A stretch of DNA of 64,000 nucleotides from Saprospiraceae bacterium (GTDB lineage Bacteria > Bacteroidota > Bacteroidia > Chitinophagales > Saprospiraceae), in contig JBELML010000010.1 of assembly GCA_042095835.1 (NCBI GenBank), positions 21,186-85,185 on the forward strand, read 5' to 3'. Made by a program: the position numbers and the translations under genes. A model generated the notes under the pieces. That model ran no database searches and was not told the DNA's origin. It saw nothing but the letters and a program-made list of their open reading frames with translations. Below are positions 19,873 through 46,593 of the stretch, piece by piece; within the stretch, counting starts at the first letter, position 1; each line of letters begins with the position of its first letter.

Positions 19873-21678
19873 TTGTCAAAAAGACGAAACGCTTTATATC
19901 ATAAAGCAAGCCTTATATGTATTTCTTTCTGCCTTTTGAACTGTACATTTTCTAATGCACAGGAGCAGGAATTATTCCTTCATCATTCCCTTTCAGACTC
20001 CATCCAAGTAGGCCAAACCCAATATTATCATATAGATTTAGGTAGTGGAGAAGTCGCCTTAATTCGCTTAGAAAGGGGTTCTTTTGAAATAAATAAGGAG
20101 ATCAACCTACTAGTGACCATTATCAATCCTGGAGGCGAGATCATAGAAGAAATCAATACGGCCAGCGATGCCAGTGTGGTCATTTTTAAAAGTCGTAGTT
20201 CCGGGCTCCATCAAATTTTGGTTCGGAGATGGAATGGTGCCTCAAAGGGGGCTTATAAAATAACTTATGATTTTCACCAAAAAGAAACTGAAGATAAGCT
20301 TCTGCAAATTGAAGGGCTGCTAAGCTATTTTTATAACCAACAGCAACCTGGGCTTGCCATGGCTATCCTACAAGATGGTAAAGTACGGGTCGAAAAGTAT
20401 GTAGGCTTGAGGCAGGTAGAAGAGGGGCTTCCCCTCAATACCAACACCCTCTTGGAGTGGGCTTCCTTGTCAAAAATGGTAACTGCATATGCGATTGCTC
20501 TATTGATTGATCAAGGTAAATTAGAGCGTCATGCTCCTCTTTCAAAGTATCTACCTCAAATGCCTGAATACATGCAAGGCATCACCATTCATCAATTGGT
20601 CCATAACCTTAGTGGCCTCAGAGATTATCAACCACTTTTAGACCTTCTGGGCTACCTCAATAATCAACATAACGCCTGGGATCATGACCTTTTAATCCAT
20701 ACACTCCACCTGCATCAAGACGTTTATTTCCAGCCTGGTTCAGATTATCGTTATTGTAATATCGGCTATATTCTTCTGTCAAAAATCATAGAAGAGGTGG
20801 GTGGGCTCCCATTTGCAGATTGGATAAAACAACACCTATTCGATCCCATAGGTATGGACAATTCTTTTATTTTTAAAATGGATCGCTCCCTGAAATCTAA
20901 TCTGGCAAAATCGTATAAAAAAGAAAACGGTAGTTATGATGACATCCAAGTATCACCAGAGCACTATAAGTGGCAGGAGAAAAACTTAGAAGCTCTAGGA
21001 GCGGCTCAAGTACATAGCACCTTGAGGGATTTTATAAAGTGGGACCAAAACTATCAGAACAATAAAGTCGGTAGTAGCAACATCAAGCAAATCATCCGTG
21101 AAGGAATTATTCCAGAGGAACAAGCCTGGGATTGGTATTATGGTTTCCAACGGTATAAATACCGCGGACAAGAAAAATGGGCTTCCGAGGGACTTACACA
21201 AGGCTATCGCACACTCTATGCTCGATTTCCACAGTTAAAAACTAGTTTCATCTTCCTAAGCAATGATGGCGAATGGCGCACCTACTATTTAGCTAATAAG
21301 ATCATTGATCTTTACCTAGAGGACAGCCTCGAAAAGGAAACTATAGCCACTGCCTATCGGGCCGAGACAAATGCCATCCAGAATACACCAGAAAAAACAG
21401 CCCCTTCCTATGCTTATGATCCCGCTATATTAGGTCATTATTATAATACCTCTTTAAAGACCATTTTTACCATTGAAGCATCCAAAGGAAAAGCTATTAT
21501 TGTAGCAGAAGAGCAACTTGACCTCCAATCTTCAGCAGGTCAAAAAGACGAGTATACTACTGATAAATGGTTTATCAAAAAGCTGATTTTCCAAAGGACA
21601 AAAGAACAAAAAGTCCAATCCTGCACCATTTATAATAGTAAAGATGATAGTTTCTTTGAGTTCAAAAAACTTCATTAA
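19873..21678 (+). CDS. Secreted serine hydrolase of the beta-lactamase/PBP4* (class C-like) family
   Basis: SxxK motif (WASLSKM) and YxN motif (YRYCNIGY). An N-terminal signal peptide is reached from a TTG start, and there is an extra N-terminal domain of about 120 aa. Confidence 0.75.
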   Translation: MSKRRNALYHKASLICISFCLLNCTFSNAQEQELFLHHSLSDSIQVGQTQYYHIDLGSGEVALIRLERGSFEINKEINLLVTIINPGGEIIEEINTASDASVVIFKSRSSGLHQILVRRWNGASKGAYKITYDFHQKETEDKLLQIEGLLSYFYNQQQPGLAMAILQDGKVRVEKYVGLRQVEEGLPLNTNTLLEWASLSKMVTAYAIALLIDQGKLERHAPLSKYLPQMPEYMQGITIHQLVHNLSGLRDYQPLLDLLGYLNNQHNAWDHDLLIHTLHLHQDVYFQPGSDYRYCNIGYILLSKIIEEVGGLPFADWIKQHLFDPIGMDNSFIFKMDRSLKSNLAKSYKKENGSYDDIQVSPEHYKWQEKNLEALGAAQVHSTLRDFIKWDQNYQNNKVGSSNIKQIIREGIIPEEQAWDWYYGFQRYKYRGQEKWASEGLTQGYRTLYARFPQLKTSFIFLSNDGEWRTYYLANKIIDLYLEDSLEKETIATAYRAETNAIQNTPEKTAPSYAYDPAILGHYYNTSLKTIFTIEASKGKAIIVAEEQLDLQSSAGQKDEYTTDKWFIKKLIFQRTKEQKVQSCTIYNSKDDSFFEFKKLH

Positions 21679-22437
21679 TTAACGATCCAACCACTCCTTG
21701 AAAGCAGCACTACGACTATTCGAGGTATACAATTCCATAGTAGGTGTTTGCAATTGAATAGCCAAGCGGTTTTTGATATAAGTACTAAAACTCACGATTC
21801 TTTCGAAACGTACGATCTCGCTGCGATTAATCCGAAAAAACAAATTGGGGTCAAGGCTATTTTCCAAATCACTCAGGGTATGGTTGAGCATATGTCGCTT
21901 GCCTTTGGTATCAAAAGCCAAGGTAAAATCACTTTGACTTTGAAAAAGGCTAATATCACTCGTCTTCAATAGAAAGACGCCTTCTTTCTTTTTCACGGGG
22001 AAAGTACTCTTGTAGCTAGGACCAGCTGCCGTAGTATTGAGCTGTGACAACAGTCCTTGCAGGTCAATATTGGGTAGTTCTTTTTGAAAAAGTTGCTGGT
22101 ATTTTTGCCAGGCTTTCTGAAAATCAGTCTTGCTATAAGGCTTTAATAAATAAGCGATACCATTGGTTTGGAAGGCATCGGTGTAGTAGGTATTATAGGC
22201 CGTACAAAAGATAATCGGACACTTGGGCGTGATCTGTTCGTAAAGCTGAAATACATTCCCATCAAGCAACTCAATATCTGAAAAGATCACGTCCAATTGT
22301 GGAGCTCCGCTTAAATAGGCCATTCCTTCGCTAATACTCCTCCCCCACTCTAGCTGTGCTTGAGGCACCTGCTCGCGAATCAAATCAATAAGCTTCTCTC
22401 CAGCCCTTTGCTCATCTTCTAGAATATAAATACGCAT
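21679..22437 (-). CDS. LytTR-family response regulator
   Basis: Receiver domain (DVIFSDIELLDGN, LLKPY) plus a C-terminal LytTR DNA-binding domain (FFRINRSEIVRFERI). Confidence 0.85.
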   Translation of the reverse strand: MRIYILEDEQRAGEKLIDLIREQVPQAQLEWGRSISEGMAYLSGAPQLDVIFSDIELLDGNVFQLYEQITPKCPIIFCTAYNTYYTDAFQTNGIAYLLKPYSKTDFQKAWQKYQQLFQKELPNIDLQGLLSQLNTTAAGPSYKSTFPVKKKEGVFLLKTSDISLFQSQSDFTLAFDTKGKRHMLNHTLSDLENSLDPNLFFRINRSEIVRFERIVSFSTYIKNRLAIQLQTPTMELYTSNSRSAAFKEWLDR

Positions 22438-22438
22438 A

Positions 22439-23479
22439 TTACAGCTGCTTAATTAAAGGTAGTCGTACCATAAAGCGGTCTCCATCGAGTAGCTCCATCT
22501 CCTGATCACTCAACAATCGATAACGAGCAGCCAGGTTTTTCAAGCCTGTTCCCAGGCTTTTCTCCCTGACCAGTTTAGGTCTTTTGATATGCTCGACTTT
22601 GATACCATCCTCTCCAATATACAGGTCTACTACCAGTGGATCAGCGGGTAGCCCCTGATTATGCTTGACTACATTTTCTACCAAAACCTGTAAGGCAGCA
22701 GTAGGGATGAGATATGATCTTAAATCACCGACTTGATTATCTAGCCGGAATTGATAGCTCTCTCCAAAACGCGTTTCTATTAGGAAAATATAATCCTTAA
22801 TGAAGGACCACTCCTCCTGAAGCGAAACTACATTATCCTCAAGGTTAGCTGCCAGATAGCGATACAAACCGGCTAGCTTTTGGACATATTCCTTAGCCAA
22901 GGCTTGATCTCGATCAATAAGATCATCCAAGGTATTGAGGTTATTAAATAAAAAATGGGGATCGATTTGCGATTGCAGGGCGTTGAGCTGGGCTTCGGTT
23001 TTTTCGGCTCTCAATTGCATAATCTCTTGATTATTCACGATCCAATCTCTAGAAAAGCGATAAGCAAAAGACATAGCCAAAGCAGAAAGCAAGGAATTCG
23101 GAAAACCAATCGCTAGGTTATCTCTACTCCACCATTGATTTGCGAAACCATCAATAAACCCTCCTGAACCAAGAGATAGTGTGGTCACTAGCATAATTCT
23201 TAAAACTTCAACCAGGAGCAATGCTAAAACAACTACTCCTATGTAGCGCAGCCACGCACCATCTCTCAGGTAACGTGGTATCCACCACAAAGCGTTGGCA
23301 TAAAAGAAAACAGGCATCAGCAAAGCGGAAATGGGAGAAATATGCTCTAGGTGCTGCTTCCCATCCACCCAACTTGCTCCCCAATTGACATTGATCGTAC
23401 TATAAAAGAAAAGCCAGGTCATCAAATGGATGATCCCTTCCCGATAGCGAAAGATGGCGGCACTCAGTTTATTGAACAT
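22439..23479 (-). CDS. LytS-type sensor histidine kinase (His_kinase/PF06580 type)
   Basis: Multi-TM N-terminus, QIDPHFLFNNLNTL phosphoacceptor box, and a C-terminal ATPase region. It is 1 nt from the response-regulator gene. Confidence 0.85.
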   Translation of the reverse strand: MFNKLSAAIFRYREGIIHLMTWLFFYSTINVNWGASWVDGKQHLEHISPISALLMPVFFYANALWWIPRYLRDGAWLRYIGVVVLALLLVEVLRIMLVTTLSLGSGGFIDGFANQWWSRDNLAIGFPNSLLSALAMSFAYRFSRDWIVNNQEIMQLRAEKTEAQLNALQSQIDPHFLFNNLNTLDDLIDRDQALAKEYVQKLAGLYRYLAANLEDNVVSLQEEWSFIKDYIFLIETRFGESYQFRLDNQVGDLRSYLIPTAALQVLVENVVKHNQGLPADPLVVDLYIGEDGIKVEHIKRPKLVREKSLGTGLKNLAARYRLLSDQEMELLDGDRFMVRLPLIKQL

Positions 23480-23539
23480 AATTAGGATGAATAAAACGCT
23501 CCTGTAAAATTATAAAACAAAAAAGACAAGTCCTGCCAA

Positions 23540-23565
23540 CTCACCGGCACTTCACCCCAGTTCAC
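23540..23565. promoter_or_regulatory. Candidate regulator (LytTR?) site: three helically phased TCACC direct repeats
   Basis: aacTCACCggcacTTCACCccagTTCACCtg has TCACC at 23540, 23551 and 23561 (spacing 11 and 10 nt). It sits in the 143-nt divergent spacer between the kinase and the ABC genes. CCAGTTCAC shares 6 of 9 positions with the AgrA-type ACAGTTAAG half-site. Confidence 0.25.
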
Positions 23566-23622
23566 CTGATTTTGCTTCCAATCCCATTCTGTATTGCATA
23601 CTTTGTACACGAATCTACCATA

Positions 23623-24498
23623 ATGCTAAATATGCTTCACATCCAGAATCTCAATAAAACTTATCCAAACGGCGTCAAAGCTTTAAACAACCTCTCCTTG
23701 ACTTTAGCCAAAGGCATGTTTGGTCTTTTGGGGCCAAATGGCGCGGGAAAATCAAGTCTAATGCGTACTATCGCCACCCTCCAAACACCAGATAGTGGTC
23801 TACTTTCTTTTAATGGCATAGACTTGCTAAAAAACCCCATGGAACTCCGCAAAACTCTTGGTTATTTGCCCCAATCTTTTGGCGTCTACCCGAGGGTTTC
23901 TGGAGAACGCCTGCTGCATTATTTTGCTCAACTTAAAGGAATTGCCTCCAAGAAAGACCGCAATAAGATGGTGCAATATGTGTTGGAACTTACCAATCTT
24001 TATGATGCCCGCAAGAAAGCGGTCAGTGGCTATTCAGGTGGTATGCGCCAGCGCTTTGGCATTGCCCAATTATTGCTCAACCAACCGCAACTAATCATCG
24101 TAGATGAACCTACAGCCGGATTAGATCCTGCCGAGCGCAACCGCTTCTTGAACGTCCTGCGCGAAGTCGGCACCGATCATACGGTGATCTTCTCGACCCA
24201 CATCGTAGAAGATGTCAAAGAACTTTGTACAGACATGGCCATCATGCACCAAGGTCAAGTCATCCAGCATACCACTCCTCAACAAGCTTTGCAAGAATTG
24301 GAGCAGAAAATTTGGGTAGCGGATATAGAGAAACCAGCACTAGCTCAATATCAAACCCAATATCAAGTCCTTTCTAATAGCTTCAACCCAGATCACTCTA
24401 TTCAATTGCGGGTATTCAGCGAGGTATGCCCAGGCCCTCATTTTAATCCTTCTATTCCTCACCTGGAGGATGTCTACTTTATCGCCCTTGCTCAATAA
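23623..24498 (+). CDS. ABC transporter ATP-binding protein (ABC-2 type partner)
   Basis: Walker A GLLGPNGAGKSS, signature YSGGMRQR, Walker B LIIVDEPTAGLDP. The likely start is the ATG at 23623 or 23632 rather than the TTG at 23572. Confidence 0.85.
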   Translation: MLNMLHIQNLNKTYPNGVKALNNLSLTLAKGMFGLLGPNGAGKSSLMRTIATLQTPDSGLLSFNGIDLLKNPMELRKTLGYLPQSFGVYPRVSGERLLHYFAQLKGIASKKDRNKMVQYVLELTNLYDARKKAVSGYSGGMRQRFGIAQLLLNQPQLIIVDEPTAGLDPAERNRFLNVLREVGTDHTVIFSTHIVEDVKELCTDMAIMHQGQVIQHTTPQQALQELEQKIWVADIEKPALAQYQTQYQVLSNSFNPDHSIQLRVFSEVCPGPHFNPSIPHLEDVYFIALAQ

Positions 24499-24526
24499 TT
24501 TATTCGCCATTTATTAAACCTTTGCT

Positions 24527-27500
24527 ATGTTCTGGTCTATCTTTAAATACGAAGTTAAACATTGGTTGAGGCAGCCGGCAACCTACCTTTATTATATCGT
24601 CTTTGCCGCTATTGCTTGGTTCCTTTTTGTAGGTTCCGCAGGGTATTTTGATGGGCCTTCTACTGCGAGTGGACCTCAAAAGCTTTTGAATAGTCCCTTG
24701 GGTATTCACTCTTTCTTCCAGTATTTTGGGAAGTTTATTTTGTTCCTATTGCCAGCGATACTAGGACAAGGCTTGTACCGTGACTTCAGTAGTAATACTT
24801 ATCAGCTCATGTACAGTTATCCCATTTCAAAGCCAGCCTATTGGTGGGCCAAATTATCTAGCGGTTTAGTTGTGGTATTGCTGATCTCTACGGCCCTTGG
24901 AGTAGGTCTCCTCCTGGGAGAATATACACCTGGTTTGGACAGGGCTCGAATGGGGCCATTTCAAGCTATGGCTTATCTTAGAGCATATCTGGTACATCTT
25001 TGGCCGAACTTATTGAGCTACGGCCTTTTGGTATTTTTGATAGTGGCCTTAAGTAGAAATATCTACGCCGGTTTTTTAAGCATTTTAGGTCTTTACATCT
25101 TACAACTAATCAGCCAAAATGCCTTTGCTAATCAAGCTTACTATATCGGTCTATTCGATCCTTATGGACAAAATACGGTGGCCTATCTCACTCGCTTTTG
25201 GACTTTGGAGGAGCAAAATACCAAGCATTTCCCCATTCAAGGTATCTTACTCAACAATAGACTACTCTTTTTTGGTGCGAGTTTATGTTTGATGATATGG
25301 GCCTATCGAAAGTTTCAACTACACACACAATCCCCACTATTTCGGACTAAACGTCTCCACCTGAGCTTTGGTAAAAAAGCAAACCCAAAAAGAATAAACA
25401 CTGCTTTTACTCCTCAAGTAAGCATCAGTTTTAGTAGCTGGCAAAACTTAATCCGCAGTTGGCAGTTGGGTGTTTTCCACTTAGGAACCATTCTTAGCAG
25501 TTGGATATTCCAAAGTTTGGTAGGTCTAGGACTCTTGGCTATGGTCTTTGCTTTGGGTAGAGTCACCAACACAGGGGAGATGACCGTATTGCCTCTTACC
25601 AGGATCATGCTGACGGTACCAGCCACTTTTTTCAACCTCATCATCATGATTTTGACCTTTATCTATACTGGGATGCTGGTACATAAAGACCGTAGCAACC
25701 AGATGGACCAGTTAGTCGATAGTACGGCAGTACCGAATAGTGTTTTATTTGGTGCGCCCTTTTTTGCTATTCTTCAAATGCAAATCATCCTGCTATTCAC
25801 TATGATGATTGCTGGAGTGAGCTTGCAGATATATAATGGATATTATCATTTCGAATGGGGTCTTTACTTCTACCACTTATTTGGGATTTATTTGATCAGT
25901 TTGGTGATTTGGGCCTTGTTATCCTTTTTCATCCATAATATCTTGCCCAATCCTTATTTGGGTATCTTCCTTCTATTCCTGATGTGGATAGGCTTTGCTA
26001 ATCTTCCTCAACTCGGCATAGATACTAAAGTACTGGCCTTTAACTCCCCAGAGACACTGCGCTACTCTGATATCAATGGTTTTGGTCATGGTCATCGCAG
26101 CTACTGGAGGCTCGAATGGTATTGGTTGACGCTAGCTTTGCTACTAGCATTATTTAGTAATCTTCTTTGGAGAAGGGGTGTAGTCAATCGACTAGTAGAA
26201 CGGGCCAAACAAATAAGGGTTCGTTGGAATCGGATGACAAGTGTCCTTGTCTTAGCCTTAACATTACTCGTTATAGGCCAGGGATTTAGCTTACTTACAG
26301 AAGAAGCGAAAGCGATCTCCAGAGACATAGAAAATCAGCTTTTTAAAGATTTTGAGCAGGCGTTTGCCAAATACAGCGGCACCCAACAAGCTCAAATCAA
26401 AGCGATAGACTTACACATCGATTTATTCCCTGAAGAAAACAACTTCCGCGCTAATGGCAGCTATCTCCTACATAATGAAAGTGATCAATACATCGATACC
26501 ATCCTCGTCAAGGCGGGATTTGGAGAGCGTAGTACCTTTGACTTTGATCGTGCATTCCAGATGATTGACCAAGATACTTTTGTACAATTCTTTGTCTTTC
26601 AACTAGACCATAAACTAGCGCCTGGTGATTCCCTACAAATGAATTTCTCTATTCGAAATCAAGCCAACACCCTTTTTGAACGCCGATCAAATATTCTAAA
26701 AAATGGCACCTTTCTGCAAAGTGATATCTTTCCGCGTTTAGGATATTTCTTAGAAGAATACACTTTAGCGCCTACTGATACGAGCGCGCATCAAACCAAT
26801 ATGCAGTATCCTTTTGCGGACCGTATAGACTTTTCGGCTACAGTAAGCACCTCCGCAGATCAAATCGCCATTGCACCTGGATACTTACAAAAGCAATGGG
26901 AAATAGATGGTAGAAATTATTTCCAATACAAAATGGATCATCCCATCAAGTTTTTATTTAGTATCAACTCTGGTCGATTTAAGGTAAAAGAAGAATCTTA
27001 TAAAGGTACTAACCTCAAAGTTTTCTATCATCCGCAGCACTCCTATAATCTCGAAAAGATGATGGGAGGTCTAAAAGGAGCCTTGGATTATAACAGCGAA
27101 TTTTTCAGCCCTTATCAACATCGAGAAGCACGTATTATTGCATTTCCGGAACCAGAAGGCACTTTTGCTACCACCTCGGCCAATAGTATCCCTACTTCTG
27201 AAATCCGTTTTATAGCCAATACCGATATAGAGGACGAGCAAATTGATATTGCCTTTTACGTATCTGCTCATGAATTGACCCATCAGTGGTGGGGCAACCA
27301 AGTGCTACCGGCCGATGCTCATGGAAGTGCCTTTCTGGTCGAAAGCATCACCGAATACATCAGCCTCAAAGTTTACGAACGCCAATACGGTTTTGAGAAA
27401 GCCATGCAATTCCTCAGAGCACAGCACGGTCGCTACCTTCGCGGGCGAAATCGAGAGCGAGACCAAGAATATCCATTACTGAACCTTAGGCAGCAGCAGC

Positions 27501-28033
27501 AATATCTTTCTTATGGTAAAGGAGCTATGGTATTATGGTCCCTGAGTCAGCAGATGGGAGAAGCAGATTTTAATGCCGTTTTAAAAACATTTTTAGAAAA
27601 ATATCAATTCAAAGCTGCTCCTTATCCAACTTCGGTTGATTTTCTTCAGCATTTACTTTCCGCTGCCCCTGAGCGAATGCACCAAATCATAAAAGATCAA
27701 ATAACGGATGTACAGATTTTCAATAATCGAATCGTCGAAGCCAAGCCGACAAAACTTTCGACCAAGCAATACCAAGTGCAAATTGAGTGTACACTGGAAA
27801 AATTCAGAAGCAGTCTAGAAAACAGGCTTCCATTCGATCAGGCCATTGAAATAGGGTTCTACGACCAGCAAAATCAATTGCAAAGCATCCAAAGATGGAA
27901 GCCCGATCTTGAGCAAAAAAGCAAGACCTTCAGCCTGGATTTCCAAGCATCTAGAGTGGTAATTGACCCCAGGATGCTACTCATCGACCTAGATTTAGAT
28001 GACAACGAAATTTCATTGGCGTGGAGAGATTAA
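24527..28033 (+). CDS. Fusion protein: polytopic ABC-2-like permease region (about 560 aa) plus an M1 (gluzincin) peptidase-like domain
   Basis: Roughly 12 hydrophobic helices fill the N-terminal half. The C-terminal half carries VSAHELTHQWWGN (HEXXH) and a downstream FLVESITEY Glu. It follows the ABC ATPase after a 28-nt gap. Confidence 0.8.
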   Translation: MFWSIFKYEVKHWLRQPATYLYYIVFAAIAWFLFVGSAGYFDGPSTASGPQKLLNSPLGIHSFFQYFGKFILFLLPAILGQGLYRDFSSNTYQLMYSYPISKPAYWWAKLSSGLVVVLLISTALGVGLLLGEYTPGLDRARMGPFQAMAYLRAYLVHLWPNLLSYGLLVFLIVALSRNIYAGFLSILGLYILQLISQNAFANQAYYIGLFDPYGQNTVAYLTRFWTLEEQNTKHFPIQGILLNNRLLFFGASLCLMIWAYRKFQLHTQSPLFRTKRLHLSFGKKANPKRINTAFTPQVSISFSSWQNLIRSWQLGVFHLGTILSSWIFQSLVGLGLLAMVFALGRVTNTGEMTVLPLTRIMLTVPATFFNLIIMILTFIYTGMLVHKDRSNQMDQLVDSTAVPNSVLFGAPFFAILQMQIILLFTMMIAGVSLQIYNGYYHFEWGLYFYHLFGIYLISLVIWALLSFFIHNILPNPYLGIFLLFLMWIGFANLPQLGIDTKVLAFNSPETLRYSDINGFGHGHRSYWRLEWYWLTLALLLALFSNLLWRRGVVNRLVERAKQIRVRWNRMTSVLVLALTLLVIGQGFSLLTEEAKAISRDIENQLFKDFEQAFAKYSGTQQAQIKAIDLHIDLFPEENNFRANGSYLLHNESDQYIDTILVKAGFGERSTFDFDRAFQMIDQDTFVQFFVFQLDHKLAPGDSLQMNFSIRNQANTLFERRSNILKNGTFLQSDIFPRLGYFLEEYTLAPTDTSAHQTNMQYPFADRIDFSATVSTSADQIAIAPGYLQKQWEIDGRNYFQYKMDHPIKFLFSINSGRFKVKEESYKGTNLKVFYHPQHSYNLEKMMGGLKGALDYNSEFFSPYQHREARIIAFPEPEGTFATTSANSIPTSEIRFIANTDIEDEQIDIAFYVSAHELTHQWWGNQVLPADAHGSAFLVESITEYISLKVYERQYGFEKAMQFLRAQHGRYLRGRNRERDQEYPLLNLRQQQQYLSYGKGAMVLWSLSQQMGEADFNAVLKTFLEKYQFKAAPYPTSVDFLQHLLSAAPERMHQIIKDQITDVQIFNNRIVEAKPTKLSTKQYQVQIECTLEKFRSSLENRLPFDQAIEIGFYDQQNQLQSIQRWKPDLEQKSKTFSLDFQASRVVIDPRMLLIDLDLDDNEISLAWRD

Positions 28034-28646
28034 TATGCCCATTCAGACCTTATTTAGCCCGATTCGGACTTTTCTTAACATATTTTTTCAAGCTCTGTTA
28101 AAATAAATTTAAAAAATAACCATTCATATAGTGGTCTTACTTTGTGGGGTAGAAAATTGAGAATAGAAGTAATTCAATTATTTCATACAATCTACTACCT
28201 TTGGTGCGCATTTATAAAAACGAGTCTCCTTCACCAAAGGAGTGCTGTTGTTAAGATGTAATTTCTTTTAAAAGTCCAGCGGTTGATCCCAATAATGAAG
28301 TAGATCTTATTGATATCAGCCGAAATAAGTGGATTTTCTAAAGAACCAATATGTTAGAAGCTATAAATTATAAAAAAAAATATATTTTCGCAGAATTGGC
28401 GAGAGAGGCTATTTAACTGGGAATTATGCACACAGCATTGATCTGTAGTACTTGGTTGATTGAATAATAACAAATCATATCTCCAAATCATAGGGCTTGC
28501 CCTACCCTCCTACTTAGATACGTCCTATCTCCTGTTCTGGTTCAGTATTGAATGAAGATAAATTATCGATTGAGGTGGTAGATCTCTATTCATTACTTAA
28601 TTGAGTAGTAAAATTTTAACTTTTGGATATCTCAAAAACTTATCAG

Positions 28647-29609
28647 ATGTCTGGATTACGTCTAATTGCAATCCTATGTCTTGTTGGCACCGCTAACGGA
28701 CTTTTTGCTCAGCAACTTTCCTTATTCACGCAGTACCGCGAAAACGCAACCATTATTAATCCAGCCGCAGTCGAGTCCGACTTCCTCGTTTTTGGCAATA
28801 ATCTCACCTTTGGAGCTTCCTACCGACAGCAGTGGGTGGGCCTCGAAGGCGCTCCGACTACTCAGGTGGTCCGAGGGAGCTATATTGCCAGTGGAATGAG
28901 TGGCGTAGCCTTGATGGCTGGTGGCCATATCATCAATGATGTGACTGGCCCTACTGGATTTACAGGCTTTTATGGTCGTATCGCAGGTATACTTAGTGGC
29001 GACCCTGAATACGGCGGCCTCGTAGTTGGCCTAAGTGCAGGTTATGTTCAATACCGTGTGAACGGTTCCGAACTAGTCTTCCGAGATGGTGTGGATAATA
29101 TCGGTGGTGTAGATCAATCTCAAATGTATCCCGATTTGGGGGTTGGTTTGTATTATTACCAAGCCGTGGGTGGCGGTCGCTACAGTAGTGACTTCATTTA
29201 TGGTGGGCTTTCCGTACCTCAACTTTTTGGCTTAGACCTGACTTTTCAAAATGATGCAGGAGAGTTTATTACCACAAGGGTGCAGCATATCTATGCCACC
29301 GCTGGTTACATCAAAACCTTCGATAACGAAAGCTTTATCGAGCCGTCGATCTGGGTGAAAAGTGTAGAAAACGCCGACATCAATGTCGATGTTAATCTTC
29401 GATACCAATTACCCTCTACCCTTTGGATAGGTGCTGGTTATTCTACCGCACAAACAATCCATTTGGAGACAGGTTTGGTGCTGAATGAGAACGTAGGACT
29501 AGACAACATGATCAGGATTGGTTATGGCTATGATTATTCCTTCACCTCTTTTGGTCCGACTGCTGGGAATACCCACGAAATCAACGTCACCTTTTCTTTT
29601 GACCGATAA
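28647..29609 (+). CDS. PorP/SprF-family T9SS outer-membrane protein
   Basis: Signal peptide from the ATG at 28647, then QQLSLFTQYRENATIINPAAV and YRQQWVGLEGAPTTQ, which are hallmark PorP/SprF motifs. It is directly upstream of a type-B CTD cargo gene. Confidence 0.85.
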   Translation: MSGLRLIAILCLVGTANGLFAQQLSLFTQYRENATIINPAAVESDFLVFGNNLTFGASYRQQWVGLEGAPTTQVVRGSYIASGMSGVALMAGGHIINDVTGPTGFTGFYGRIAGILSGDPEYGGLVVGLSAGYVQYRVNGSELVFRDGVDNIGGVDQSQMYPDLGVGLYYYQAVGGGRYSSDFIYGGLSVPQLFGLDLTFQNDAGEFITTRVQHIYATAGYIKTFDNESFIEPSIWVKSVENADINVDVNLRYQLPSTLWIGAGYSTAQTIHLETGLVLNENVGLDNMIRIGYGYDYSFTSFGPTAGNTHEINVTFSFDR

Positions 29610-29691
29610 ACAAATGCTTGATATCTGTAGAAGCACAGCCTAGTGATTGCACTTGTTTTGTGCCCTCTTCTATTAAAAATTAATTCAACTC

Positions 29692-32600
29692 ATGAGATTG
29701 ATAAAAAATATAGCACTGTTCGTCACCCTCTTGGTATCCCTACCACTAAGTGTATGGTCGCAAGGAGGTGGTCCTACTTTTTCATTTACCTCTGAAACGC
29801 CATGTACGGGTGATGACTTCTGCCTCGATGTGACAGTAGAGGATTTCACTGATATCTTGGCGATTAAGTTTCCAGTCACCTGGGATACTTCTGTAGTCGA
29901 GTTTCAATCTATCACCAATTTTGGTCTCCCAGGTATGAACCTAGCGGATTTCGATCTTTCTACGGTCAATGAGGGACTGATTCGAGTCAATTGGCAATTC
30001 GATGATTGTGAAGTGGCGACTCAGGGTTCAACTATTCAGGATGATGTCATCATCTTCACCCTTTGTTTCCGAGCTATCGGCGATTATGGGGCCGTTACTA
30101 ATGTGAGCATTCTCAACCAAGACACGGTACTACTTGGCGATCCTGATCCCGTAAATATTCAGCGTTTTGGTATCGATTGTTCGATTGATATTCAAATCAA
30201 CAGTGTCAACCCTGGTGTTGTCTCTACCTGTGTAATTCCGGTAGAACTTTATGCTACGAGTACTCTTGGTAATACCGGCGAACTCGTATCTATCGATGTA
30301 AAATCCAGAGGATTCACAGACCTCAATGCTTTACAATTCACCATGGTCTGGGATTCAAGTATTTTGATGTTGGAGGAAGTCATTCCACTAGAGGCACTGA
30401 TCAACCTCAATGTCAACAACTTTGGTACTCCGGTCAATAACATCAATGTTCCAAGAGGTAATTTGACTTTTACCTGGAACTATATTGACCCTACCGGAAA
30501 TGACTTGGGTGCCACCTTAGTCAACGATGAAAGTGTATTCACACTAAACTTCCGAATCATAGGAGATTGTGAAACTTCTAGCGCTGTGGGTATTGATCTA
30601 AGCGAAGATGCCCTCACGCCCTTGGAAGCTATTAGCTCCCGTGAAGAAAATGGGCAAGTCATCAATGATAATATTCCTTTAATAACCACCGACGGAGAAG
30701 TAGCCACAGGAGCCTGTACCCCTGATGGTTTGATTTTGTTTACCGATTGTGGAGCACCTACTGGCCTAGACTCTATCGTATGTGTTACGGTATCAGCTGG
30801 AGCCATCAACGATTTGACAGATATCCGCTACCTCATGGAGTGGAATCCCAATATACTAGAGTATCAAAACATCAATATCCTGACCAACTCCATGCAAGGA
30901 CTCAATCAGGGAAGTTTTGATGCCGCCAATGCCAGCAATGGTCTTTTAGAATTAGATTGGTCTTCTCTCAGTTCATTATTTAATGCCAGCTTTGTAGAAG
31001 GCGAGCAACTCTACGAGGTATGTTTTAAAGTCGTCGGACTTGGAGGAAATAGCCCGGTAAGGATTGATCCGACAGCTCCCGCAGCCAGAGTTCGTAGAGA
31101 AGGCTCCTTCATTCCAGTAGGTTTATTCCCGAACAATTGCGAGGTAGAAGTCAACCAACCAGCGGGAGTTACACTCAACCTTTCAGACGCGCAAGCACCA
31201 CAAGGCGATACCATGTGCGTAGACATCACCGCTGCGAACTTCAACGAATTGGTCAATCTCCAATTTTCCCTTAGCTGGGAAACGACACATGCTATATATG
31301 CTGGCATTAGAAATATCAATCCTTTACTAGCAGATAGTATCACCATAGATACAGGAGGTATTGGTTCTGGTAGTTTCACCTTCTTGTGGAATAATACCAA
31401 CGGCGTTACCTTAAATAGCGATGAGGTCCTCTTCTCCCTTTGTTTGGCGGCAATAGGTCCCTCACCGGGGGAGCTGTCCCAAAATAATAACTGTCAGGAG
31501 CTACAAGTTGTACCATTTCCATTAGTTGGGCAAGCAAAAAGTCTTGCTTCTCTAGATAATGATATTGGCCTAACGGGGGTCAATGGCGAAATTTGTATCC
31601 TGAACCCAGAAGGATTCTTTCTGGTTGTAGAAAACGAAGAAGGTTTTGTCAACTTTGGTACTTGTATTGATTTCAAAGTTGCGGAGTTTGATAGTATCAC
31701 CTCTGCTCAGTTTTCTCTCAACTGGGATGCTACCGATTTAAGCTTTGATAGTATCGTTTTACGAGATTTTCCAGGTTTGGAGATCGGTACCAACTTAGAC
31801 ACCTCAGCAGTCCGTACCGGATTGATTAGATTCGATTGGACAGACCTACAATCTCAGACAGTAGCCGATAGTACGGTCTTATTTGAGGTCTGTTATACCC
31901 TAATTGGACCTGTGAACACCTGTACAGACATCGAGATCAATAGTGATCCGAATCCCTCTGTTACGACCATCAATGGCGCAGGTAGTGTATTTCCACTTGG
32001 AGGAGGGGTTTGCATCAAAGATACCCTGATTATAGTTGATTCGATCATCACGGCAGTTACCTGTCCAGATGCTATCGATGGCACCATAGAAGTAAGCGTA
32101 ACAGGAGCAACCGGAGAACCTGTCTTTTATAACTGGGTCTCCTTGGAATCCGAAAACGTACCGGTGCAATCTGGCCCTAAGGCAGTCAACCTACCTGTTG
32201 GTCGGGTAGCGGTTACGGCATTTACGCTAACGAATCCACCGTTAGTTACAAGAGATACTTTTTCGATTCCGCTTACTACTGTTTTACCGGAAGCTAATGC
32301 AGGAGATGATGTGGACTTTAATTGTGTAACGGATGCTGCACGTTTAGAAGGTAGCGGATCAACTGGAGATATTTATGATTATCGTTGGACTGCGCTTAGT
32401 GGTACGATCGCTAGTGGCACGGACAACGCTATTGTATTAGTTAGCTCTCCAGGAACTTATGTATTTAGCGTGATCAACTCTGAATCACTTTGTTCTGCAC
32501 GAGACACCATGATTGTACGTAGTCCTGTGATCCCTTCAGTCAACGCTGGACAAGATGTATTCCTAACCTGTGCTGATTCCTCAAAAGTGTTGGATGGAAC

Positions 32601-35367
32601 ATTGTCTTCTCCAACTGATTCGAGTGTTTCTATAACATGGACTGCTTTCTCAGGAGGAGTAATTGAAGCTGGTGAAGCCAATGTGATTTCACCAAGAGTC
32701 AGTCTACCTGGAACGTATGTCCTAGAGATTGCTTTTAAAGAGACTGGATGTTCTGAAACGGATACCGTACGAGTAGAAAGTGTGGAAGAATTCACGCCGG
32801 TATCAGCAGGACCCGATGTGGAATTAAACTGCGATACGAATGGTGTCACTTTATTTGCCAATATTGATAACTCCGTAAGGGACTTTAATTTCTCGTGGTT
32901 TGATGAAAATGACTCGCTTATTATTGTCGATGACCGCGTAAATGTCAATACACCAGGTTTATATCGCATCGTTGCGCAGGATAGAGATAACTTCTGCGAA
33001 ACTACAGATACCATAGAAGTACTGCCTAATAGTCGTCAACCAGTAATCGATTTGATAGATTCCTCAGCACTCGACTGTACGAATCCGACCCTAGACTTGA
33101 TGGCTGTGGTGAGTAATACCGATAGCTTCACCGTTGCTTGGCAAGCATCAGCTGGTGGTGTATTCGAGCAAGATACCACCGATGCTTTAGCCATAACAGC
33201 TACTGCTGCAGGTGTGTTTACGCTTACGATTACAGATACCACCACTAGTTGTATAACCATTGATTCGGTAATGGTCGACAACCAAATCGAAACGATCAGT
33301 GTAGATGCAGGTATAGGTGGCGACTTGACTTGTGAGGCTCCAAACTTGACGCTGCGATCAACAGTAGATACCAGTCTGTCGCTGGAATGGACGCTCAATG
33401 ACAATCCAATTGGCGACCAAGACACGCTAGCCGTAACCACCGCAGGAACCTATTTCCTAACTGCGACCAACCTAGCAACGGGTTGTAATAATATAGATTC
33501 GGTGGCCGTAACTAGCTCGGCTGACTTACCAGAAATCACGGCTCCTAATTTGCCTACTATTACCTGCGAAGAAACCACTGTGGTTTTAAATGCAGAGGTT
33601 ATGCCTAGTGATGCTGATTATGCCTACAGCTGGTCTGTAGTAGATCAAGGAGAAATTGTAAGCGGTGAAAATACGGCTGCGCTTACAGTGGGTGCCGCTG
33701 GAACCTATCTATTACAGGCTACAAATACAGCAACGGGTTGTACTAGTTCCAATAGCTTCACCGTACCAACCGATACCATTACTCCTACGGCTATTGCTGG
33801 AGATGATCAGGTACTCACTTGTACCCAAAATTCTGTCTCTCTGAATGGTGTAGGTTCAGAAGTTGGACTAAATATTGTTTACAATTGGTCTACCCTTGAA
33901 GGTAATGGCATGGCTAGTCCTGCTAATCAGCTACAAACAACAGTGGATGGTCCTGGTACATATATGTTGGAAGTAAGAGATACCCTTACCGGTTGCTCAA
34001 GTACAGATATGGTAGTGGTTACTCCAGATACTGCTTTACCCAATGTTACATTGGCTCCACTTACAGAAGTGTTGACTTGTACCACAAATATGCTAATGCT
34101 TGATGGAACTGGATCTGACTCTGGTGCAGGCTTTTCTGCCAACTGGAATGCCCTAGATGGACAACTTGCCCCACAGACGGGTAACGATCCTTTGATGGCC
34201 TCCGTCACACAAGCAGGAGATTATGAACTTGTCATATTGAACCTAGCCACCGGATGCCAAAGTAATGCCAATATCACCGTAACAGAGGACCGCGACTTGC
34301 CAATGGCTTCTGCAGGAGAAGATGTGACTGTAACCTGTCCAGGAAATCCTGTCAGTCTAGATGGTTCCCTATCAGAACAAGGGCCTAATTTATCCTATAG
34401 CTGGACAACGATCTCTGGCGGTGAATTATCCAATCCTACTTCTTTGGCACCAACTGTTAATGAACCAGGAGAATTTGAAATCGTTGTTACCGATTCTACT
34501 AATGGCTGTACCAACTCAGATATCGTACTAGCGATCTTAGATCCAAACCTAACAGTAGCTAATGCTGGAATGGACGATTCCAGCTGTGATTCCCTTGCTT
34601 TAATTGTAGCAGAACCACCATTAGGCGCAACGGGCTTATGGACGACAACGGGTGCTGCAATTATTGATGTAGCAGATGGAAACTCAACGACCATCAATAA
34701 CTTGCAACCTGGTCCAAACGTATTTGTATGGACACTTTCTACTGCTGACTGTCCTAATTATAGTAGTGATTCTGTCACTGTCATTAGAGAGCAGGCACCA
34801 CAGGCAAATATTGATGCCGTTGATTTACCCGTAGGAACAAATCAGACCACGATTAGTGTGACTGCTAATGATATCATCACCTCCCAAAGTGGTGCCAATA
34901 TCAGCATCGTTTCTAATCCTACTTTAGGTGCGGTTGACTCGGTGACGGGCAACACCGTTACTTATCGGGTAGCGCGAGGAATTGTTGGTGAGGATATGTT
35001 TACTTATGAGATTTGTAATAATGAATGTCCCAACTTATGTGATAGAGCTACGGTCTCTGTAAACGTACCTTTTGACCCTAACTACAGCCCGACGCTCGCC
35101 AATGGTATCACGCCCAACGGCGATGGACAAAATGATGAGCTCAGGTTTGAGGTATTAGAAATTGAGCCAGATGCTTTCCCTGATAATGAGATTATTATCT
35201 TCAATAGATGGGGAGATATTGTTTTCCAAGCCAAACCTTACAACAACAATTGGCGAGGCACCAATGATTCTGGACAAGAATTACCACAAGGAACCTACTA
35301 CTATATTTTGAGACTAGATATCTCAGAAGGTAATATCGTCTCGGGAGATGTGACCATCGTCAAATAA
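29692..35367 (+). CDS. Giant T9SS type-B-CTD surface protein: five cohesin-like modules, an SprB-like repeat, about ten Ig/PKD-like repeats and a cadherin-like domain
   Basis: Signal peptide, then five modules of about 120-150 aa between aa 28 and 775 sharing the pattern C.DV.V..F.D...LQF...WD...L.F......G.(L/I).(F/L).W......V(L/I)F.(L/V)CF. Tandem repeats of about 78 aa of the form (A/V)xAGxDxxLxC...Y.W...G...PGTY......GC..D...V follow. The C-terminal TPNGDGQNDELRF...IFNRWGDIVF...GTYYYIL is a type-B CTD. Confidence 0.85.
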   Translation: MRLIKNIALFVTLLVSLPLSVWSQGGGPTFSFTSETPCTGDDFCLDVTVEDFTDILAIKFPVTWDTSVVEFQSITNFGLPGMNLADFDLSTVNEGLIRVNWQFDDCEVATQGSTIQDDVIIFTLCFRAIGDYGAVTNVSILNQDTVLLGDPDPVNIQRFGIDCSIDIQINSVNPGVVSTCVIPVELYATSTLGNTGELVSIDVKSRGFTDLNALQFTMVWDSSILMLEEVIPLEALINLNVNNFGTPVNNINVPRGNLTFTWNYIDPTGNDLGATLVNDESVFTLNFRIIGDCETSSAVGIDLSEDALTPLEAISSREENGQVINDNIPLITTDGEVATGACTPDGLILFTDCGAPTGLDSIVCVTVSAGAINDLTDIRYLMEWNPNILEYQNINILTNSMQGLNQGSFDAANASNGLLELDWSSLSSLFNASFVEGEQLYEVCFKVVGLGGNSPVRIDPTAPAARVRREGSFIPVGLFPNNCEVEVNQPAGVTLNLSDAQAPQGDTMCVDITAANFNELVNLQFSLSWETTHAIYAGIRNINPLLADSITIDTGGIGSGSFTFLWNNTNGVTLNSDEVLFSLCLAAIGPSPGELSQNNNCQELQVVPFPLVGQAKSLASLDNDIGLTGVNGEICILNPEGFFLVVENEEGFVNFGTCIDFKVAEFDSITSAQFSLNWDATDLSFDSIVLRDFPGLEIGTNLDTSAVRTGLIRFDWTDLQSQTVADSTVLFEVCYTLIGPVNTCTDIEINSDPNPSVTTINGAGSVFPLGGGVCIKDTLIIVDSIITAVTCPDAIDGTIEVSVTGATGEPVFYNWVSLESENVPVQSGPKAVNLPVGRVAVTAFTLTNPPLVTRDTFSIPLTTVLPEANAGDDVDFNCVTDAARLEGSGSTGDIYDYRWTALSGTIASGTDNAIVLVSSPGTYVFSVINSESLCSARDTMIVRSPVIPSVNAGQDVFLTCADSSKVLDGTLSSPTDSSVSITWTAFSGGVIEAGEANVISPRVSLPGTYVLEIAFKETGCSETDTVRVESVEEFTPVSAGPDVELNCDTNGVTLFANIDNSVRDFNFSWFDENDSLIIVDDRVNVNTPGLYRIVAQDRDNFCETTDTIEVLPNSRQPVIDLIDSSALDCTNPTLDLMAVVSNTDSFTVAWQASAGGVFEQDTTDALAITATAAGVFTLTITDTTTSCITIDSVMVDNQIETISVDAGIGGDLTCEAPNLTLRSTVDTSLSLEWTLNDNPIGDQDTLAVTTAGTYFLTATNLATGCNNIDSVAVTSSADLPEITAPNLPTITCEETTVVLNAEVMPSDADYAYSWSVVDQGEIVSGENTAALTVGAAGTYLLQATNTATGCTSSNSFTVPTDTITPTAIAGDDQVLTCTQNSVSLNGVGSEVGLNIVYNWSTLEGNGMASPANQLQTTVDGPGTYMLEVRDTLTGCSSTDMVVVTPDTALPNVTLAPLTEVLTCTTNMLMLDGTGSDSGAGFSANWNALDGQLAPQTGNDPLMASVTQAGDYELVILNLATGCQSNANITVTEDRDLPMASAGEDVTVTCPGNPVSLDGSLSEQGPNLSYSWTTISGGELSNPTSLAPTVNEPGEFEIVVTDSTNGCTNSDIVLAILDPNLTVANAGMDDSSCDSLALIVAEPPLGATGLWTTTGAAIIDVADGNSTTINNLQPGPNVFVWTLSTADCPNYSSDSVTVIREQAPQANIDAVDLPVGTNQTTISVTANDIITSQSGANISIVSNPTLGAVDSVTGNTVTYRVARGIVGEDMFTYEICNNECPNLCDRATVSVNVPFDPNYSPTLANGITPNGDGQNDELRFEVLEIEPDAFPDNEIIIFNRWGDIVFQAKPYNNNWRGTNDSGQELPQGTYYYILRLDISEGNIVSGDVTIVK

Positions 35368-46572: not shown

Positions 46573-46593
46573 AGTTTATTTGGAGTAAAATCC

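Follow-up and report, generated by a model that had tools for sequence, protein, structure and literature searches.

A putative four-helix sensor domain adjoins operons for ABC permease/M1 peptidase fusions in Bacteroidota

The window analysed here, a stretch of 64,000 nucleotides from a Saprospiraceae bacterium, contains a two-component system that diverges from an operon for an ABC ATPase and a permease::M1-peptidase fusion. Judged by sequence comparison, the N-terminal domain of the histidine kinase (aa 1-150), with four predicted transmembrane (TM) helices, defines a small sensor family that is new here. Over all strong, assessable matches, this domain was linked exclusively to ABC-M1 operons. 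A preliminary description of the locus had taken the four genes for a functional module. The linkage bears this out, as does the presence of an adjacent kinase or regulator at 17 of 19 loci of the subfamily that holds the window's fusion. The coordinates first given for the four genes were confirmed, and the locus has the following features.

21679-22437, minus strand: LytTR response regulator, 252 aa (REC and LytTR, the latter at aa 153-250)
22439-23479, minus strand: PF06580 histidine kinase (kinase core and N-terminal sensor domain)
22439-23029, minus strand: kinase core, aa 151-346 (PF06580 His_kinase and GHKL ATPase part)
23030-23479, minus strand: kinase sensor domain, aa 1-150 (four predicted TM helices, short periplasmic loops)
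23480-23631, no strand: divergent regulatory spacer from the kinase start to the conserved ATPase start (sequence and comparison with locus L137)
23536-23566, plus strand: three tandem repeat units, predicted LytTR regulator site (pattern count, conservation)
23599-23605, plus strand: candidate -7 promoter box TACTTTG (read from sequence)
23632-24498, plus strand: ABC-2-type ATPase, 288 aa from the conserved ATG (Pfam ABC_tran, NCBIfam)
24527-28033, plus strand: permease::M1-peptidase fusion, 1168 aa (Pfam, fold models)
24527-26308, plus strand: fusion membrane part, aa 1-594 (two 6-TM ABC-2 halves, linker, TM13)
26309-28033, plus strand: predicted periplasmic M1-fold metallopeptidase, aa 595-1168 (Pfam, Foldseek)

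The sensor domain is present once in the window's own genome, and the family comprises just 47 representative clusters among 1.84 billion proteins. Its alignment shows invariant residues. Across 121 genomes of the order, the domain matched in three places, all of which adjoin a fusion operon. A sensor-based scan found ATPase and fusion adjacent in 7 of 7 assessable loci, and in 401 genomes of the phylum, sampled without regard to context, all nine strong sensor matches adjoined the ATPase and fusion genes. The linkage persists through three gene orders (a divergent pair; an AraC-type sensor followed by ATPase and fusion; ATPase, fusion, kinase and regulator with 4-nt overlaps) and three outputs (kinase plus LytTR regulator, direct LytTR fusion, direct AraC fusion). 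In the single-chain sensor-LytTR proteins, the LytTR domain matches that of the window regulator (E 1e-27 to 1e-33), and all three of their loci are divergent from an ATPase-fusion operon. On a tree of M1 domains, the sensor-linked fusions group together. In the whole fusion family, a kinase or regulator is adjacent at about 13 of 53 loci (roughly a quarter). Since most operons of the wider family have no adjacent regulator, regulation by this sensor would be a subfamily trait.

PF06580 was the sole Pfam domain reported in the kinase (His_kinase, E 2.2e-23, aa 163-241). The phospho-acceptor histidine can be read from the translation in PHFLFNNLN, and the GHKL part in ENVVKHN and GTGLKNL. The regulator carries a LytTR domain (Pfam E 4.4e-15) and matches the NCBIfam LytR model over its full length. 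Its Pfam Response_reg match scored 29.0 bits, just under the cut-off of 30.2, and by eye the receiver motifs are recognizable as the acidic pocket ILEDE, the acceptor Asp in FSDIEL and the conserved Lys in LLKPY. A REC-LytTR regulator is shared with the LytS/LytR systems (BtsS/BtsR, YehU/YehT). However, the kinases of those systems carry 5TM-LYT and GAF domains before the PF06580 core, whereas the window kinase has its different 150-aa 4-TM domain, and Pfam reported neither 5TM-LYT nor GAF in it. The label LytS initially given to the kinase is thus apt for the core but not for the sensor of a true LytS/BtsS, and the name is a loose one.

The fusion itself is a member of a large, already known family, listed at NCBI as "ABC transporter permease/M1 family aminopeptidase". 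It is 38-48% identical, over 96-100% of its length, to proteins with that name; the closest full-length protein found was at most 47-48% identical. The family was catalogued in 2013 as TCDB 3.A.1.145, with Myxococcus xanthus Q1D520 as founder (PMC3924187). The window protein shares with it an N-terminal 13-TM ABC-2 domain joined to a Peptidase M1 domain at the C-terminus, and homology over the full length. The entry is a catalogue record only, without the dedicated sensor or the interchangeable outputs seen here. Our literature search yielded no experimental work on any family member, in line with the initial view that the architecture is uncharacterised. A misassembly had been considered and is ruled out, because more than 1100 full-length homologues occur in many phyla. 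The fusion has an accessory character: it is patchily distributed, being present in 21 of the 121 genomes of the order, occurs twice in some genomes and is found in several phyla.

The ATPase gene lies directly 5' of the fusion gene in each of the 20 loci from the same order and in almost all of 35 distant loci, usually with E <1e-90. The intergenic gaps measured 28 nt between ATPase and fusion and 1 nt between kinase and regulator, both as first noted. The ATPase (Pfam ABC_tran, 3.1e-28) has DrrA and GldA of the ABC-2 type as best NCBIfam matches, and its Walker A, signature, Walker B and H-loop motifs are all intact.

The membrane part of the fusion was originally counted at roughly 12 TM helices, but hydropathy and AlphaFold2 predict 13: two 6-TM ABC-2 halves and TM13 (aa 569-594), which is predicted to bring the chain out of the cytoplasm. 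A K/R-rich cytoplasmic linker (aa 263-303) is predicted to be disordered. Because the number of helices is odd, the M1 domain should lie outside. Its extracytoplasmic placement, already suggested in the preliminary description, is predicted by hydropathy, positive-inside counts and AlphaFold2. The AlphaFold2 models (pLDDT 83 and 82) have a type V ABC (ABC-2) fold in the membrane part, and homologues of the fusion carry ABC2_membrane_2/4/5. Foldseek matched this part to a 12-TM mycobacterial efflux pump, PmtCD, NosY and ABCG5/8. The best of these, PmtCD and the mycobacterial pump (PDB 6xjh, 8k1p), reached TM-scores of 0.57-0.62 on the target at 12-19% identity. The mycobacterial pump has both ABC-2 halves in one chain, as does the window fusion; neither it nor PmtCD has a peptidase or a 13th helix, both of which are predicted for the window fusion.

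Peptidase_M1 (PF01433) was identified at aa 855-1054 (Pfam, E 1e-14), and the model of the M1 part shows a beta domain I, a catalytic domain II and a beta domain III. Sequence matches in the PDB were ColAP, APA and ERAP, and Foldseek matches were IRAP, ERAP and PepN (E ~1e-18). The catalytic sites are encoded at 27269-27283 (HELTH), 27341-27343 (Glu939) and 27512-27514 (Tyr996). Residues H915, E916, H919, E939 and Y996 are invariant in 25 homologues. The HELTH...E gluzincin site reported at the outset is indeed present, with a spacing of x19 family-wide and not x18. Y996, in YGKG, aligns to SYSKG of glutamyl aminopeptidase (PDB 4kx7). Canonical M1 enzymes (E. coli PepN, ERAP1/2, IRAP, LTA4H, ColAP) thus have domains I-III, the HExxH...E zinc site and the YxKG tyrosine in common with the fusion. 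The fusion differs from them by its x19 in place of x18 spacing, by its tether through an ABC permease, and by the absence of two elements. The first is the glutamate of the exopeptidase motif GxMEN, by which these enzymes hold the free N-terminus of a substrate: in the HMMER alignment GAMEN aligns to FATTS, and the column of the glutamate is T, V, I, A or S across the 25 homologues. The second is the helical cap, domain IV, absent from the model, which ends with a beta domain at aa 1063-1165. Because both are lacking, classical N-terminal aminopeptidase action is unlikely for the modelled enzyme, with the reservation that inferences on specificity are soft because the loop equivalent to GxMEN was modelled at pLDDT <50.

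The divergent spacer was at first given as 143 nt, which holds if the ATPase begins at ATG 23623. With the conserved start at ATG 23632 (MLHIQNL), it measures 152 nt. TCACC occurs at 23541, 23552 and 23562, a triplet pattern found once in the window against 0.00 expected (100 shuffles). The three repeats originally described are thus present, but their unit is longer than TCACC. The tandem units of 10-11 nt are CCAACTCACC (23536-23545), GCACTTCACC (23547-23556) and CCAGTTCACC (23557-23566). The outer two fully match CCA(A/G)(C/T)TCACC, and a pair of 10-bp direct repeats at a distance of 21 bp is the better reading. Compared with the closest relative, L137, the only well-conserved block of the spacer is ~23533-23575, with the repeats inside it. 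The pattern CCA[AG][CT]TC[AG]C had 7 matches in 2.1 kb of regulator/ABC spacers, all in the sense of the ATPase, against 9 in 124 kb elsewhere, where the patterns were picked after viewing the data and several of the compared loci are related by descent. We infer that the repeats are the binding site of the LytTR regulator. Going by the published Bacteroides promoter consensus, TACTTTG (23599-23605) may be a -7 box of the Bacteroidota type, paired with a possible -33 element, TTTG at 23571-23574. A TAnnTTG similar to this candidate is seen in L137 and L129. Given this candidate promoter, the repeats might lie ~45-75 nt upstream of the transcription start. In two further loci (L164 and L165), the repeats and the ATPase are separated by a conserved ORF of ~83 aa for a secreted product, which was not seen in the other loci examined.

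Tentatively, we favour the reading of the locus as an inducible envelope device, in which a sensor-controlled exporter pulls out a membrane-associated peptide and cleaves it on the outer side. Two copies of the ATPase would power the single-chain 12-TM type V (ABC-2) exporter, and the 13th helix would tether an active M1-fold zinc peptidase on its periplasmic side. The 4-TM domain would serve as an intramembrane-type sensor of the PF06580 kinase, which would phosphorylate the LytTR regulator. The regulator would then bind the two direct repeats just upstream of the ATPase promoter and activate the ATPase-fusion operon. The exporter would extract a peptide or lipopeptide from the inner membrane or the cytoplasm, and the M1 domain would cut it at the outer face. 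The logic of such a module would be resistance or detoxification.

A peptide as substrate is suggested by analogy with PmtCD and with the Nsr and Bce modules (PMC10314905, PMC11009047). PmtCD of Staphylococcus aureus exports amphipathic peptides. The BceRS-BceAB modules of Firmicutes sense and detoxify antimicrobial peptides. In them, an ABC transporter is coupled genetically to a kinase of the intramembrane type, whose extracellular loops are minimal and which induces the genes of the transporter. The window shows a genomic linkage of sensor domain and transporter, and the likeness would be one of logic only. BceB, an FtsX-type permease, has 10 TM helices and a large extracellular domain, whereas the window transporter has the type V ABC-2 fold; no BceB or MacB type was among the fold matches of the membrane part, nor did Pfam report FtsX. 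The Bce regulator is of the OmpR type and acts with a BceS-type kinase, in contrast to REC-LytTR with a PF06580 core, and a peptidase fused to the transporter is not a Bce feature. An assignment of the components themselves to the Bce type was rejected on these grounds of fold (type V ABC-2, not BceB/FtsX) and regulator class (LytTR, not OmpR-type). The nsr operon of Streptococcus agalactiae encodes NSR, a peptidase anchored in the membrane that cleaves a peptide antibiotic outside the cell, together with the ABC transporter NsrFP, with which PMC8913810 and PMC12484072 are concerned, and the two-component system NsrRK. It resembles the window in that a single locus unites an extracellular peptidase with an ABC transporter and a two-component system. 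However, NSR is a separate S41 serine peptidase and NsrFP is of the BceAB type, while the window peptidase has a zinc M1 fold and is fused to an ABC-2 permease.

In the strongest alternative, which we nevertheless regard as unlikely, nothing crosses the membrane. The ATP cycle of the ABC part would displace the tethered M1 domain, or make its uncapped site accessible, to cleave a periplasmic, lipoprotein or cell-wall peptide, comparable to FtsEX-controlled hydrolases and to NosD driven by NosFY. One of the best fold matches is NosY of NosDFY, a protein with a periplasmic partner. In canonical M1 enzymes the domain IV cap acts as the gate; the M1 domain here is without it, so gating of its active site may fall to another part, and the covalent TM13 tether would pass movement on directly. 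However, the mycobacterial efflux pump and PmtCD, which are the other best fold matches, are genuine exporters, and a dedicated inducible sensor would be no less fitting for a response to a compound from outside. Furthermore, no conserved precursor, biosynthetic, partner or substrate gene was found beside the operon in 58 loci, where only the ATPase and regulators recur.

The pump might instead export the cell's own peptide or amino-acid derivative for trimming by M1 outside, a counterpart of the peptidase-containing ABC exporters, though with an outward-facing peptidase. The 2013 catalogue entry (PMC3924187) suggested an amino acid or a derivative as the exported compound, and the secreted ORF of L164 and L165 could be counted in favour. 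This ORF, however, did not turn up in the other loci examined, no small conserved ORF was seen near the window's operon, and the 58 loci lack a conserved precursor or biosynthetic gene, which makes such a maturation role improbable.

Bacteroidota are known as peptide degraders and M1 enzymes typically trim peptides, so that the periplasmic domain could digest oligopeptides for uptake, with the ABC part otherwise involved in the same process. Against this highly improbable reading, the transporter has an ABC-2/type V fold and no substrate-binding protein, both of which speak against import, the exopeptidase motif is lost, and a patchy distribution and an intramembrane sensor are ill-suited to a core nutritional role.

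Finally, the two-component pair might be a chance neighbour that regulates something else, a reading that the linkage data come close to refuting. With 33 PF06580 kinases and 44 LytTR proteins in the genome, such pairs adjoin many genes, and most fusion operons are without one, but the sensor domain occurs once in the genome and elsewhere lies beside an ABC-M1 operon in every strong, assessable match, across three orders and three outputs, and the repeat motif is kept in the shared spacers.

Returning to the sensor of the inducible device, it is possible, if on balance doubtful, that the 4-TM domain is no independent ligand sensor but a reader of the ABC-M1 transporter, which would bind the permease in the membrane and report its transport or conformational state. 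Flux sensing like that of BceS-BceB would then have an independent origin in Bacteroidota, built on a type V ABC-2 exporter. If true, the same 4-TM reader would have been plugged into three outputs, kinase and LytTR regulator, LytTR fusion and AraC fusion. The tight link between sensor and operon offers a practical route to what the exporter responds to.

All four open reading frames of the module proposed in the preliminary description were present exactly as described there:

21679-22437, minus strand: LytTR response regulator, 252 aa, with REC and LytTR domains (Pfam, NCBIfam)
22439-23479, minus strand: sensor kinase, 346 aa, with a His_kinase domain (PF06580), 1 nt from the regulator
start ATG at 23632, plus strand: ABC ATPase (ABC_tran), with best matches to DrrA/GldA-type ABC-2 ATPases
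24527-28033, plus strand: fusion protein, 1168 aa, with Peptidase_M1 at aa 855-1054, beginning 28 nt after the ATPase

The longest open reading frame of the ATPase has a TTG start at 23572, and conservation with the closest relative begins at the ATG at 23632 (MLHIQNL). We therefore take 23480-23631 as the divergent spacer. No Rfam match was found within 21000-29000, nothing notable emerged among the small open reading frames 3' of the fusion, and PADLOC identified no defence family, its sole similarity being to a generic ABC ATPase.

A database search with the fusion returned at least 1137 homologous proteins (E <= 0.001). The best 120 of these span 90-100% of its length, with one partial record at 66%, and among the matches listed the best full-length ones are 37-48% identical to it. 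Full-length relatives occur in Bacteroidota, Gemmatimonadota, Alpha-, Beta- and Gammaproteobacteria, Acidobacteriota and one cyanobacterium, and many homologues carry the NCBI name "ABC transporter permease/M1 family aminopeptidase" together with Pfam ABC2_membrane_2/4/5 and Peptidase_M1. A misassembly or gene-fusion artefact is ruled out by the more than 1100 full-length homologues and the conserved operon structure. The architecture had been thought uncharacterised, and a literature search agreed, finding no experimental paper on it; the only mention was a catalogue entry of 2013, TCDB 3.A.1.145.1, for M. xanthus Q1D520 (1200 aa, 13 TMS, ABC-2 and Peptidase M1), with the function given as a guess only (PMC3924187). 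The window's fusion is a member of this catalogued, unstudied TCDB 3.A.1.145 family. In the order to which the window belongs, it was present in 21 of 121 sampled genomes, in some of them twice. Four of these genomes (G034, G028, G063 and G088; loci L084-L108) each have two diverged operons of ATPase and fusion, 29-43% identical to the window's, and in G028 and in G063 the sensor accompanies just one of them.

Hydropathy and an AlphaFold2 model (pLDDT 83 for the whole fusion, 82 for the membrane part) divide the membrane part into two ABC-2 halves, each with six TM helices and a preceding amphipathic helix. The halves are joined by a disordered linker (aa 263-303), and the loop at 259-318 contains 10 K/R and no D/E. 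A second K/R-rich loop (aa 548-568) is followed by a 13th helix (aa 569-594) leading into the soluble part. With the N-terminus inside, these 13 helices would place the M1 part in the periplasm. A PDB sequence search with the membrane part gave no match. The best fold matches were 8k1p, a 12-TM single-chain mycobacterial efflux pump (TM-score 0.49/0.57), PmtCD, NosY of NosDFY and ABCG5/G8, and together they indicate, for the modelled structure, a type V exporter fold.

In a fold search the soluble part matched IRAP, ERAP and PepN (E about 1e-18). Its catalytic domain (aa 842-1060) is flanked by two beta domains, I (aa 623-834) and III (aa 1063-1165). Residues H915, E916, H919, E939 and Y996 (in YGKG) are invariant across 25 homologues. 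The exopeptidase motif GxMEN is not conserved: FATTS aligns with GAMEN of glutamyl aminopeptidase, the Glu column is variable across the fusion family, and the loop is modelled at low confidence. The helical domain IV, which caps the active site of canonical M1 enzymes, is absent from the model. Canonical M1 aminopeptidases have both the GxMEN Glu and domain IV, whereas the fusion has neither and so falls outside that class. The invariant zinc ligands and tyrosine, taken with the loss of GxMEN, suggest that the domain is an active zinc peptidase, probably not a classical aminopeptidase. A stand-alone M1-family peptidase is also encoded in the window, at about 40059-40427 on the minus strand (543-aa frame), with weak similarity to the catalytic domain of the fusion (E 2.8e-8).

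The ATPase is an obligate partner of the fusion. An orthologous ATPase gene lay directly upstream at 20 of 20 loci from the same order and at nearly all of 35 distant loci, usually with E < 1e-90. When the flanking open reading frames of 58 loci were clustered, only the ATPase and the kinase/regulator genes recurred, which excludes the beta-lactamase-family, PorP/SprF and adhesin genes as parts of the module. In the window, a 601-aa beta-lactamase-family serine hydrolase gene (19873-21678, plus strand) is convergent with the regulator and ends directly against its stop codon. The region downstream of the fusion (28623-35367, plus strand) contains a type IX secretion gene of the PorP/SprF type and a gene for a 1891-aa repeat-rich surface protein.

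The genome encodes 33 PF06580 kinases and 44 LytTR proteins, so that chance adjacency had to be excluded. In the whole fusion family, a kinase or regulator adjoins about 13 of 53 loci, roughly a quarter. At two loci of the same order (L112 and L117), the similarity of the ATPase's upstream neighbour to the kinase was confined to the kinase's first 150-200 residues (E 1e-21 to 1e-26), and this neighbour encoded the kinase's four-TM domain fused to an AraC-type HTH. The 150-aa sensor domain was therefore handled as a unit of its own. Searched against 121 genomes of the order (E <= 1e-5), it was found in three places including the window's own, all three adjoining a fusion operon. A GTDB pattern scan built on a five-sequence alignment identified eight loci, with ATPase and fusion adjacent in all seven that could be assessed. 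At two of these loci (L129 and L130) a pair of kinase and LytTR regulator is divergent from the operon, as in the window, and at L131-L135 AraC fusions lie upstream of it on the same strand. The closest relative, 83% identical in the sensor, has the identical divergent layout.

The sensor family is small. A word-based homology search with the sensor region returned three proteins only, and an exhaustive HMMER search, blind to genomic context, across 1.84 billion representatives returned 47 clusters only. An HMM built from the alignment of these clusters matched in 15 of 401 genomes of the phylum. All nine strong matches (E <= 1e-22) adjoin an ABC-M1 fusion, in seven genomes of one family in the order ATPase-fusion-kinase-regulator with 4-nt overlaps. 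The six weak matches belong to different kinases, of which three are divergent from a plain ABC-2 pair lacking M1. The grouping of the four genes into one module was thus borne out, with the sensor domain beside an ABC-M1 operon at every strong, assessable match.

Among 48 proteins (the window's and 47 representatives), the sensor is joined to a PF06580 kinase in 29, to a fused LytTR domain in 6 and to an AraC HTH in 4. The LytTR domains of the one-component proteins match that of the window's regulator (E 1e-27 to 1e-33), and at three of three genome loci their genes are divergent from an ATPase-fusion operon. By "Rosetta stone" reasoning, these single-chain proteins support placing the window's sensor and its LytTR domain in a single pathway directed at the operon. 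Sensor-linked fusions group together when M1 domains are placed on a tree: a 19-row set (support 95) comprises 15 sensor-linked loci, two with other kinase/regulator pairs and two without, and the remaining 46-row clade contains no sensor-linked locus. Relatedness of the loci inflates the linkage counts. Despite this, the same linkage of sensor and operon occurs in at least three independent gene orders, with three outputs and in several families.

At L153 (G499:C6), L150 and L152, weakly related four-TM sensor kinases (E 1e-7 to 1e-8), accompanied by LytTR regulators, are divergent from plain ABC-2 pairs of an ATPase and a 265-aa ABC2_membrane_4 permease without M1. On the strength of these pairs, coupling of PF06580 kinases to ABC-2 exporters may be a broader Bacteroidota theme. 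The window itself holds a second pair of PF06580 kinase and LytTR regulator (45844-47154, minus strand; G000:C10:67029-68339), whose sensor lies outside the sensor family of the module.

As a triplet, the three TCACC repeats noted in the spacer occur nowhere else in the window, and chance would not be expected to produce them. Compared with the closest relative, the spacer has diverged save for the block GCCA(A/G)(C/T)TCAC...CCCCAGTTC(A/G)CCTGATT. The repeat unit is longer than TCACC: CCAACTCACC (23536-23545) and CCAGTTCACC (23557-23566) lie 21 bp apart and enclose a weaker copy. The classical LytTR site consists of two 9-10-bp direct repeats about 21 bp apart, as in the AgrA, ComE, PlnC and BtsR sites. 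In the seven closest loci, the pattern CCA[AG][CT]TC[AG]C occurs 7 times within 2.1 kb of regulator/ABC spacer, always in the sense of the ATPase, versus 9 times in the remaining 124 kb of their sequence. A looser TCAY-N17-TCAY pair at exactly 21 nt is present in 6 of 16 kinase-type promoters versus 1.5 expected. Both patterns were defined after the data had been seen and are therefore supportive, not decisive. At two loci (L164 and L165), CCCAGTTC(G/A) occurs twice, 22 nt apart. Sigma-70 promoter and terminator scans gave counts at shuffle level. Candidate Bacteroidota promoter elements are:

23599-23605, plus strand: candidate -7 box TACTTTG
23571-23574, plus strand: candidate -33 element TTTG

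These elements may put the repeats at the usual activator position.

A tandem CATAGCA run in the spacer of the closest relative (L137:3270-3330) is absent from the window. At L164:6586-6835 (minus strand), and at the same place in L165, a conserved open reading frame of some 83 aa separates the direct repeats from the ATPase; it was not seen in the window or the other examined loci. Its product, with a signal-peptide-like N-terminus and two Cys residues (MIKRIFIYLSIGFFVTFGQA...), might act as an accessory protein in the periplasm or be a substrate. At the AraC-type loci, the stretch separating the ATPase from the sensor-AraC gene contains an inverted repeat some 22 bp long, approximately (G/T)TCCCAnnGCnTCnnnTGGGAC, once or twice in each of the following regions:

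L131:8838-9032: AraC-type inverted-repeat region
L132:843-962: AraC-type inverted-repeat region
L133:8856-8952: AraC-type inverted-repeat region
L134:1711-1882: AraC-type inverted-repeat region
L135:2559-2703: AraC-type inverted-repeat region

The inverted repeat bears no sequence relationship to the CCAryTCACC repeats at LytTR-type loci; it probably serves as operator for the membrane-bound AraC regulator.

The analysis establishes which parts are present, what topology and fold they are predicted to have, that sensor and operon are exclusively linked, and that the repeats are conserved. In the mechanism that we propose, the kinase would phosphorylate the regulator, which would activate the ATPase-fusion operon; the ATPase dimer would power the single-chain exporter, and a membrane-associated peptide or lipopeptide would be extracted and then cleaved by the tethered peptidase. 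An accessory role in resistance or detoxification is consistent with the patchy spread over several phyla, with the existence of paralogous copies and with inducible control. It is conceivable, if rather doubtful, that the four-TM domain senses the transporter itself. We consider it unlikely that ATP merely gates the peptidase, with no transport taking place. Maturation of a product coupled to its export appears less probable again, and a role in nutrition is the least probable of the three. The likeness of the extraction-and-cleavage module to Bce and Nsr systems is one of logic: Bce systems have a BceB-type permease and an OmpR-type regulator, whereas the module has a type V fold and a LytTR regulator and does not belong to them, and the same two features place it outside the Nsr systems.

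The module is unsurprising in kind; it is a tractable way into a very large unstudied family, since ABC permease::M1 fusions number thousands across Bacteroidota, Proteobacteria, Gemmatimonadota, Acidobacteriota and Cyanobacteria. What is newly added is a dedicated sensor family with swappable outputs and a refined operator. The window's locus belongs to a subfamily with a dedicated sensor and a short, well-defined promoter element, which together make the substrate question screenable, the inducer being a good guess at the substrate. One four-TM sensor on three outputs is also a natural experiment on the coupling of membrane sensors to transporters. If membrane-active peptides are degraded by the module, it would represent an undescribed resistance mechanism of Gram-negative environmental bacteria.
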